Part shown: piece by piece, positions 28,041-28,814 of the stretch
Layout of the letters: each line of letters starts with the position of its first letter
Position numbering within the stretch: the first letter of the stretch is position 1
Sequence record: NC_014792.1
Origin: Escherichia phage vB_EcoM_VR7
Direction: 5' to 3' (one strand)
Length of the DNA stretch: 64,000 bases
Program-made: the position numbers and the translations under genes
The notes under the pieces: model-generated
Told to the model about the DNA's origin: nothing
The model's database searches: none
Seen by the model: only the letters and a program-made list of their open reading frames with translations

Positions 28041-28054
28041 CTCTACTACTTGAG

Positions 28055-28062
28055 TATAAATA
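28055..28062 (+). promoter_or_regulatory. Late promoter (TATAAATA) driving the HNH endonuclease gene
   Basis: Exact TATAAATA 27 nt before the ATG, with GAGGA RBS. Confidence 0.55.
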
Positions 28063-28088
28063 TAGTATATCACCAAAGAGGACATACA

Positions 28089-28814
28089 ATGAATTATGCT
28101 TTAATATATGAGAATTTAATGAACCGAGCCAAATCTAGAAAATTGACTGGATACAAAGAATCTCACCATGTTGTTCCTCAATGTTTAGGCGGACCAGATA
28201 CAAAAGAAAACCGAGTTGATTTAACGCCAGAAGAGCATTATCTAGCACATCAACTATTGGTAAAAATTAATCCGGAACATAAAGGATTGAAATATGCTGC
28301 CTATATGATGACTATATCACCAGATGGTCGTCGGCAGAATAATAAATTATTCGGTTGGGTAAAGCGAGATTACCTAAACAATAGAATTCAATCATCTGGA
28401 ATGAAAGGGAAAAAGCATAAACCCGAATCAATTCAATTGATGAAAGATAAACGTGCTCTCCAAGAAATCACCGAAACAACTAAGGCCAAAATATCTAAAA
28501 CAAAAACTGGCGTAAAATTTACAAAAGAAGCACTAAAATCATTTAATGAAAAACGTTCCACAAACCAAGCATGGATTGATTCCAATTTTAGGCCATGTAA
28601 AGAAAGCACCAAATCTAAAATTGGCGATGCTAATAGGGGACGTGTTTTTGATAAAAAGACCTGCCCTCATTGTGGTAAAACTGGAGCAGGTCCTAATATG
28701 AAACGGTATCATTTTGATAATTGCAAATCAAAAGTCGCCAAATGCGACCTGCCAACATTCAACACCAATACGACGCCACATCTCGACAACATTTTGCCTA
28801 TCGTCAACGGCTAA
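28089..28814 (+). CDS. free-standing HNH homing endonuclease (Mob-like)
   Basis: HNH motif ([31 protein letters not shown]), basic linker and CPHCGK zinc-finger-like element; on the opposite strand to its neighbours; 3' end overlaps the pseT 3' end by about 87 nt. Confidence 0.75.

Follow-up and report, generated by a model that had tools for sequence, protein, structure and literature searches.

A putative Mob-type homing endonuclease gene inserted antisense at the pseT 3' end in Escherichia phage vB_EcoM_VR7

Introduction

How does a single plus-strand gene come to lie in a minus-strand block of early genes of a T4-like phage, and by what means could it be expressed there? The question is raised by an open reading frame (ORF) at 28050..28814 in a stretch of 64,000 nucleotides from Escherichia phage vB_EcoM_VR7 (NC_014792.1; this whole stretch is referred to as the window), where the plus-strand ORF is flanked by the minus-strand ORFs of cd.4 and pseT. 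A first-pass annotation had described it as an HNH gene placed among minus-strand genes, and this arrangement is confirmed by the sequence and by a six-frame ORF list. The window is that of a VR25-like Gaprivervirus, with phage vB_EcoM_VR25 about 99% identical to it. In our assessment, the locus very probably represents a free-standing homing-endonuclease cassette of the T4 Mob type (HNH plus NUMOD3), situated at ~28029-28727 and belonging to a clade of the pseT 3' end, which would spread by homing with co-conversion.

The kind of gene is already known. It is a MobE-like homing endonuclease, ordinary in kind and present as such in GenBank annotation, in which the VR25 gene is listed as 'similar to T4 MobE' and the SP18 copy likewise as a MobE-like homing endonuclease. 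A literature search found no paper on this gene or on any pseT-associated Mob endonuclease.

Results

Insertion at the cd.4/pseT junction

The junction was compared with T4-like genomes that lack the gene. Phage TH15 is devoid of ~700 bp exactly at the cd.4/pseT junction, and its flanking segments are nearly identical to those of the window (422/427 positions, 98.8%, on the left and 392/400, 98%, on the right). The junction of VR5 is also empty, and alignment with both phages delimits the DNA missing from endonuclease-free relatives to 28029..28727. This insertion parts the downstream early gene cd.4 (27828..28028, minus strand; VR25 annotation) from pseT (28728..29636, minus strand), the gene for polynucleotide 5'-kinase/3'-phosphatase according to Pfam and VR25 annotation (HAD_PNKP, 1.2e-55; AAA_33, 4.6e-22), which is the convergent neighbour and the putative target of the endonuclease. 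In the endonuclease-free VR5 and TH15, the cd.4 ATG overlaps the pseT stop codon (cd.4 at 1932-2129 and pseT at 2129-3037 in the VR5 annotation). TH15 and the window, being ~98% identical, make up a clean before/after pair that differs by the cassette and a putative co-conversion tract of at most 73 bp.

Rather than being present at this site in all relatives without signs of mobility, the endonuclease gene is covered by 9 of 222 related records, which correspond to 7 distinct phages. The ORF is intact at 241 amino acids (aa) in 7 other phages, with 10-13 synonymous vs 6-8 non-synonymous changes, and synonymous changes exceed replacements in the core of the protein. When the window is compared with the SP18 group, the cassette is identical in 681/698 positions, in contrast to 328/430 and 260/397 in the two flanks. 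Similarity of ~98% in the cassette between lineages whose flanks share only 65-76% therefore implies a recent transfer.

Comparisons with TH15 and SP18, combined with a database search, further disclosed a pseT 3'-terminal allele of 73 bp (28728..28800, minus strand) that is linked to the gene and may represent a co-conversion tract. Window and TH15 share only 51/73 positions in this segment, as opposed to 96/100 in the neighbouring right flank, 392/400 beyond it and 422/427 on the left. In the comparison with SP18 the relation is reversed, with 70/73 identical positions in the segment and 260/397 deeper in pseT. Dense substitutions of the linked allele are located at 28737-28750 and 28785-28800. 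When 28728-28850 was searched against the database, the nine best matches were precisely the nine records that carry the gene.

Observed in natural genomes, the insertion and the linked pseT allele together have the appearance of the classical signature of homing with co-conversion. The proposal of a free-standing homing endonuclease insertion, put forward in the first-pass annotation, is thus supported by the empty site in TH15, by the presence of the gene in 9/222 records, by an identity of the cassette far above that of its flanks, by the linked pseT allele and by homology to MobE, presented below.

The endonuclease gene and its product

The first-pass annotation let the gene begin at 28050, and in this point it has to be corrected. 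TTG at 28050 is only the mechanical ORF start, and the true start is almost certainly ATG at 28089, because it is preceded by the Shine-Dalgarno sequence AAAGAGGA (28075..28082, plus strand, read from the sequence 6-7 nt before the ATG) and because it encodes the MNYxxIY N-terminus conserved in all homologues. Members of the same clade, which comprises 13 lineages with 54-80% identity, have AAGGAG-type motifs at the equivalent position. The gene defined in this way (28089..28814, plus strand) encodes 241 aa: an HNH nuclease domain at the N-terminus is followed by NUMOD3 motifs and, at the C-terminus, by a zinc-finger-like motif, CxxC...HxxxC.

The protein matches PHROG 655 'homing endonuclease' (4.5e-63). 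In a tblastn survey it matched >1000 phage records, including T4, where the matching segment at 43592-44287 shows 31.6% identity over 218 aa (E 2e-23). In other phages, tblastn matches of ~32% are located between nrdA and nrdB, which is the mobE position. NUMOD3 (PF07460) exceeds the Pfam cut-off (22.0 bits vs 20.4) and is found in three stretches after the nuclease domain, while a search of the protein against NCBIfam gave no match.

The HNH catalytic motif (28149..28250, plus strand) occupies residues 21-54 and follows the pattern His...Asn...His with conserved spacing. Residues H26, H27, N41, H50 and H54 are invariant in the alignment of the clade (A3), and in the wider alignment (A2) only H26 and H27 fall to nearly invariant (at least 90%). 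The profile of this motif aligns with the HNH domain of McrA (E 8.4e-4), with group II intron maturase and with Cas8-HNH. In the AF2 model, the segment is folded as a strand (24-27), a second strand (42-45) and a helix (47-60), with pLDDT >90 over residues 1-70; HNH matches in whole-chain fold searches with the model were weak. The last conserved part of the family is the zinc-finger-like motif C192-x2-C195...H208-x3-C212 (CPHCGK...HFDNC; 28662..28724, plus strand), whose residues C192, C195, H208 and C212 are invariant in both A2 and A3. On sequence grounds the protein is classed as a Mob-type HNH endonuclease of putative activity.

A dedicated late promoter motif

The suggestion that the gene has its own exact late promoter is supported by the sequence. 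The T4-type late promoter -10 element TATAAATA is located within the inserted DNA as an exact match (28055..28062, plus strand), and it ends 26 nt ahead of ATG 28089 on the coding strand. Copies of TATAAATA are more numerous in the window than expected (11 vs 4.7), a number reached in 0/100 shuffles, and a given upstream stretch of 60 nt would contain one on the correct strand by chance with a probability of ~0.002. The octamer is also conserved: a late-promoter-like sequence, exact or with one mismatch, is found upstream of the start in 13/13 clade lineages (six exact TATAAATA, four CATAAATA, one AATAAATA and two TGTAAATA). Its distance to the start is 13-35 nt in the 12 tabulated lineages, and in L017 an exact copy stands just before a GTG start. 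Furthermore, exact TATAAATA precedes paralogues at unrelated loci in ST0, Pet-CM3-4 and TH22.

In T4, cd, pseT and alc are early genes. Two strong sigma-70-type promoters were detected on the minus strand of the window, at 30476-30448 (11/12 matches) and 27263-27236 (10/12), and they would fit an early-transcribed minus-strand block. As the endonuclease gene and the early genes around it are on different strands, early read-through is unable to express it. We infer that it can be expressed only by gp55-type late transcription, starting from the element at 28055-62.

A copy of the pseT site at the promoter

A 22-nt segment which we call block A, CCACATCTCTACTACTTGAGTA (28035..28056, plus strand), corresponds to the reverse complement of the pseT codons T-Q-V-V-E-M-W and overlaps the late promoter TATAAATA by 2 nt. 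The intact pseT copy of these codons (WMEVV site) is located at 28776-28796. When the equivalent 22-mer of endonuclease-free VR5 pseT is used as a query, it matches the window only at block A, with 2 mismatches (20/22; 0.00 expected). In general, block A shares 18-20/22 positions with endonuclease-free alleles, compared to 14/22 with the pseT of the window itself.

Block A was found in 8/13 clade lineages, at a similar spacing to the promoter, and its likeness to pseT always stops after TGG. Its conservation exceeds that of third codon positions in the endonuclease gene (19/22 vs 52%, P = 8e-4; 14/18 vs 46%, P = 6e-3). The right edge of block A coincides with the R/T codon boundary, where the densest substitutions of the linked allele are located (28789-28800) and where the linked haplotype ends.

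Block A could have remained as a scar of the insertion, or it could be an operator of the I-TevI style; the two are compatible. Under either of them it would point to the homing site, which, in combination with the before/after pair, would be predicted within ~25 bp. If block A is an operator, autorepression would reach beyond intron-encoded endonucleases to free-standing ones. A bolder scheme joins these elements: the antisense HNH endonuclease would regulate itself through block A as its operator, block A would pinpoint the homing site (pseT R-T/S-Q-V-V-E-M-W), and the original insertion would have occurred inside pseT, with a replacement 3' end encoded opposite to the C-terminal tail of the enzyme. 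We offer this scheme tentatively and regard it, as a whole, as possible but rather doubtful.

Overlap with pseT and the C-terminal tail

The 3' overlap with the convergent pseT, estimated earlier at about 87 nt, is exactly 87 nt long (28728-28814). Both ORFs are in exact antisense codon register: codon 214 of the endonuclease gene, TCA, stands opposite the pseT stop TGA as its reverse complement, each of the 27 codons after it is the exact antisense of a pseT codon, and the terminal TAA is antisense of a Leu codon, TTA. The C-terminal tail of 28 codons with its stop (28728..28814, plus strand) is, in other words, the exact reverse complement of the last 29 pseT codons (28 sense and the stop). 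The overlap exists because the endonuclease gene is without its own stop codon and reads through into an antisense pseT frame that happens to be open; according to the alignment, this frame is open in the TH15 allele as well.

In homologues at other loci, the alignment stops at residues 213-218, and the proteins end a few residues past HFDNCK. The fusion point ...TGY AAA/TCA AAA... is common to the window, Salmonella phage KM16 and two metagenomic phages (L017 and L018), while the lengths of their tails differ (28 aa in the window, 11 in KM16, 11 in L017 and 8 in L018). In the lineage L019 the gene has kept its own SKT-stop and has no tail, with pseT overlapped by 4 nt. The tail is predicted to be disordered (pLDDT <50 for residues 219-241). 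About half of the amino-acid changes among copies are located in it, and most of the tail changes are synonymous in pseT, as judged by reading the codons. The tail appears to evolve under the constraints of pseT and is best seen as read-through which is not designed, is not a feature of the family and seems dispensable in relatives.

No convincing plus-strand terminator was found after the endonuclease stop, the nearest terminator-like sites being at 29238-29256 (weak) and 30283-30295. Antisense RNA through pseT is therefore likely; effects of it on pseT are speculation. On the minus strand, a terminator-like hairpin, GGTCGC-ATTTG-GCGACT followed by TTTTGATTTG, is present at the pseT end (28732-28750). 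Different versions of it that preserve pairing were observed in VR5, MN01, P896 and L017, and it is not found in TH15. The possibility that the insertion made a new terminator at the pseT stop was considered and rejected, as similar hairpins exist in endonuclease-free alleles, and for the same reason the hairpin predates the insertion.

The clade at the pseT 3' end

All clade members that could be placed (KM16, L017-L019, L021 and L095-L100) have the gene in antisense to its neighbours and convergent with a PNKP gene. The clade loci come mostly from exact-protein look-ups, and a scan of viral contigs added only three further close members. Based on this sample, the clade appears to specialise in the pseT 3' end.

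The exception with regard to the pseT-type neighbour is the lineage represented by the environmental contigs L022 and L023 (503-1500), in which the endonuclease is 56% identical and not beside a pseT 3' end. Instead, its neighbour is a Pnkp-like gene of 318 aa whose domains come in reversed order (phosphatase, then kinase), and it is the 5' end of this gene that the endonuclease abuts. Translation of the Pnkp-like gene could begin only at an ATG inside block A (..KQVVT-MW-QERKKAVYCDMDGTL).

Other states and surroundings of the junction

The cd.4/pseT junction also accommodates other sequences. In phage P896 (L004, 2128-2900), it is occupied by a Seg-like gene of the GIY-YIG family that runs in the direction of the early genes. 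This gene is preceded by an inverted repeat, CTCCATAGATA...TATCTATGGAG, in which the ribosome-binding site would be paired, with TATAAATA in the loop, in what has the predicted form of the classical T4 hairpin for late-only control. In phage MN01 (L015, 2123-2320), an extra minus-strand ORF of 65 aa is located between cd.4 and pseT (Pfam T4_Y13H, 1.7e-30). Judging from these states, the junction appears to be a variable hot spot.

Several features of the window concern cd.4 after the insertion. Translational coupling of cd.4 to pseT, present in endonuclease-free phages (TAATG), is replaced by a weak GGAAAC site. A mechanical minus-strand ORF of 85 aa (27828-28085) lengthens cd.4 by 19 upstream codons through block A (MSSLVIYYIYTQVVEMWKP-MNNIEK...), and this extension is probably unused because no ribosome-binding site precedes its ATG. 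Inspection of the cassette for a minus-strand promoter that could drive cd.4 anew revealed only weak, chance-level sigma-70-like and extended -10-like matches, and no MotA box was found. As a candidate for a relic target duplication we considered ATCATTTTGATAATTGCAAAT at the right end of the insert (28707-28727), which resembles the cd.4 5' end ATCTTTTCGATATTGTTCAT (28010-28028) in ~14-15/21 positions, with one gap. This candidate was rejected: because the stretch encodes the family-conserved HFDNCK, the likeness is probably due to chance, or to microhomology used at insertion.

In addition, two segments at some distance from the junction differ in similarity from their surroundings. Positions 27250-27350 are only 70-90% identical to VR25, which is otherwise ~99% identical, and they are divergent in all other relatives too, in agreement with local hypervariability at, or close to, the 3' end of cd.3. 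TH15 is ~98% identical through pseT and falls to 52-60% past ~29950, while VR5 rises to 92-98% there (29900-30300); this segment would be a further recombination breakpoint in the mosaic.

Discussion

Proposed mechanism

According to the model that we favour, late in a mixed infection the enzyme would nick or cut endonuclease-free pseT alleles. By analogy with MobE, we place the probable cut site within or next to the conserved codons DDR-(T/S)Q-VVEMW, at a distance of ~50-70 bp from the stop of pseT. Repair templated by the genome that carries the endonuclease gene would then copy the cassette together with at most 73 bp of the adjoining pseT, and the copied pseT segment would carry substitutions that protect the donor. 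Block A would be a relic of the original insertion, and may at the same time serve as an operator through which the enzyme represses itself, in the manner of I-TevI.

Alternative explanations

Several points weigh against this model or parts of it. The homing signature falls short of proof, since T-even genomes are mosaics anyway, and the mosaic pattern could in principle come from ordinary T-even recombination. The linked pseT allele could be the native allele of the donor lineage and not an immunity allele; P896, without the Mob gene and with the Seg-like gene, has most of it. The HNH model of Pfam (PF01844) remains under its gathering threshold in the endonuclease protein (13.3 bits, E 0.098, vs 21.4), and a precomputed match to PF01844 is available for the clade relative P0044. 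Finally, block A is not essential, as it is missing in 5/13 lineages.

Ordinary homologous recombination among co-infecting T-even phages might account for both the patchy distribution of the gene and the conserved block, and the region is generally mosaic, with block-by-block identity varying between genomes across 26.5-30.3 kb. However, in each of two independent comparisons, with TH15 and with the SP18 group, the edges of the high-identity block match those of the cassette plus 73 bp of pseT, and the protein family has experimentally shown homing (PMC2790892); we consider this origin highly improbable. It is also unlikely, in our view, that the cassette is a decaying or domesticated remnant, no longer mobile and retained by accident or because it serves the phage in some way other than homing. 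Such a remnant would explain the loss of the native stop with fusion of the ORF to antisense pseT, the HNH score below the Pfam threshold and the long residence of the clade at the same site, but the ORF is intact at 241 aa in all copies, substitutions in its core are mostly synonymous, and the H, N and H of the catalytic motif show little or no variation. Moreover, the recent transfer implied by the contrast between cassette (~98%) and flanks (65-76%) and the absence of the gene from the 98%-identical TH15 argue against it.

The convergent late promoter could also be thought to serve mainly for late antisense silencing of pseT and the upstream early genes, with the endonuclease ORF being incidental. 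Invading endonuclease genes can create antisense transcripts (PMC2988022), and the late transcript, without a convincing terminator, should run antisense through pseT. Yet endonuclease-free relatives, the large majority, manage without the gene, and paralogues at unrelated loci share the promoter whatever their neighbours are, which leaves this explanation with very little probability. With regard to block A, we lean slightly towards a neutral scar of the original pseT insertion, without present function. Its homology to the TQVVEMW codons, with the likeness ending at the same nucleotide in all lineages, and its loss in 5/13 of them are in accordance with a scar. Less compatible with neutrality are its conservation above that of synonymous sites in the adjacent gene, its fixed spacing to the late promoter, and its resemblance to the endonuclease-free and not to the resident allele, as in the I-TevI operator (PMC2988022).

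Comparison with known systems

Within the model of homing with co-conversion, a close parallel is T4 MobE, which nicks T2 nrdB beside a conserved amino-acid block, with polymorphisms protecting the donor (Wilson & Edgell 2009, PMC2790892). MobE's DNA-binding module is positioned on the conserved block and its nuclease domain over the polymorphic segment, and T4 mobE lacks a promoter (PMC2790892). The endonuclease described here is a full-length homologue of MobE (~32%), has the same layout of HNH, NUMOD3 and CxxC...HxxxC, and is likewise free-standing between conserved genes; its putative target would also be in a neighbouring gene, next to a block of conserved amino acids, and the carrier would have polymorphisms that protect it. 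It differs from mobE, which is promoterless, co-oriented and reliant on upstream transcription, in being antisense and having its own late promoter. The presumed target is pseT instead of nrdB, and its own stop codon is lost.

The operator of I-TevI overlaps the late promoter and shares 15/20 positions with the homing site (PMC2988022); binding and repression have been demonstrated for this operator, and the arrangements in I-TevII and I-TevIII are putative (Edgell et al. 2004; PMC2988022). As in I-TevI, the sequence that overlaps the promoter resembles the target in endonuclease-free alleles, a putative one here (20/22 vs 15/20 in I-TevI), and other sequence stands in place of the portion in which cleavage would take place. 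Unlike the intron-encoded I-TevI, the enzyme is free-standing, its homing site is a predicted one, and the putative operator is a duplicated piece of the target gene.

Some mobile elements bring a replacement 3' end for the invaded gene, for instance the Allomyces mitochondrial atp6 element, whose endonuclease ORF forms an in-frame fusion with the host gene. On one reading, the cassette resembles this element, in that it would bring the last 23 pseT codons and the stop, while the displaced TQVVEMW fragment remains downstream. It is unlike the Allomyces element in having the endonuclease on the opposite strand, and its history is a reconstruction.

The Seg-like gene of P896 shares with the gene studied here the cd.4/pseT junction and the form of a free-standing cassette, in a background that is SP18-like. 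The two are distinguished by family and placement: the P896 gene is GIY-YIG and co-oriented, with a hairpin that hides the ribosome-binding site and has the late promoter octamer in its loop, as opposed to an HNH gene in antisense. Endonuclease genes of T4 are co-oriented with their neighbours, except the promoterless segD (PMC2988022). The position antisense within an oppositely transcribed block is a feature in common with segD, but segD is a GIY-YIG gene with no identifiable promoter, thought to be barely expressed, whereas an exact late promoter and a good ribosome-binding site precede the gene studied here. Antisense placement with a dedicated late promoter would thus be a regulatory design not seen among the endonuclease genes of T4 itself, and another route to the late-only expression which T4 attains by hairpins hiding the ribosome-binding site.

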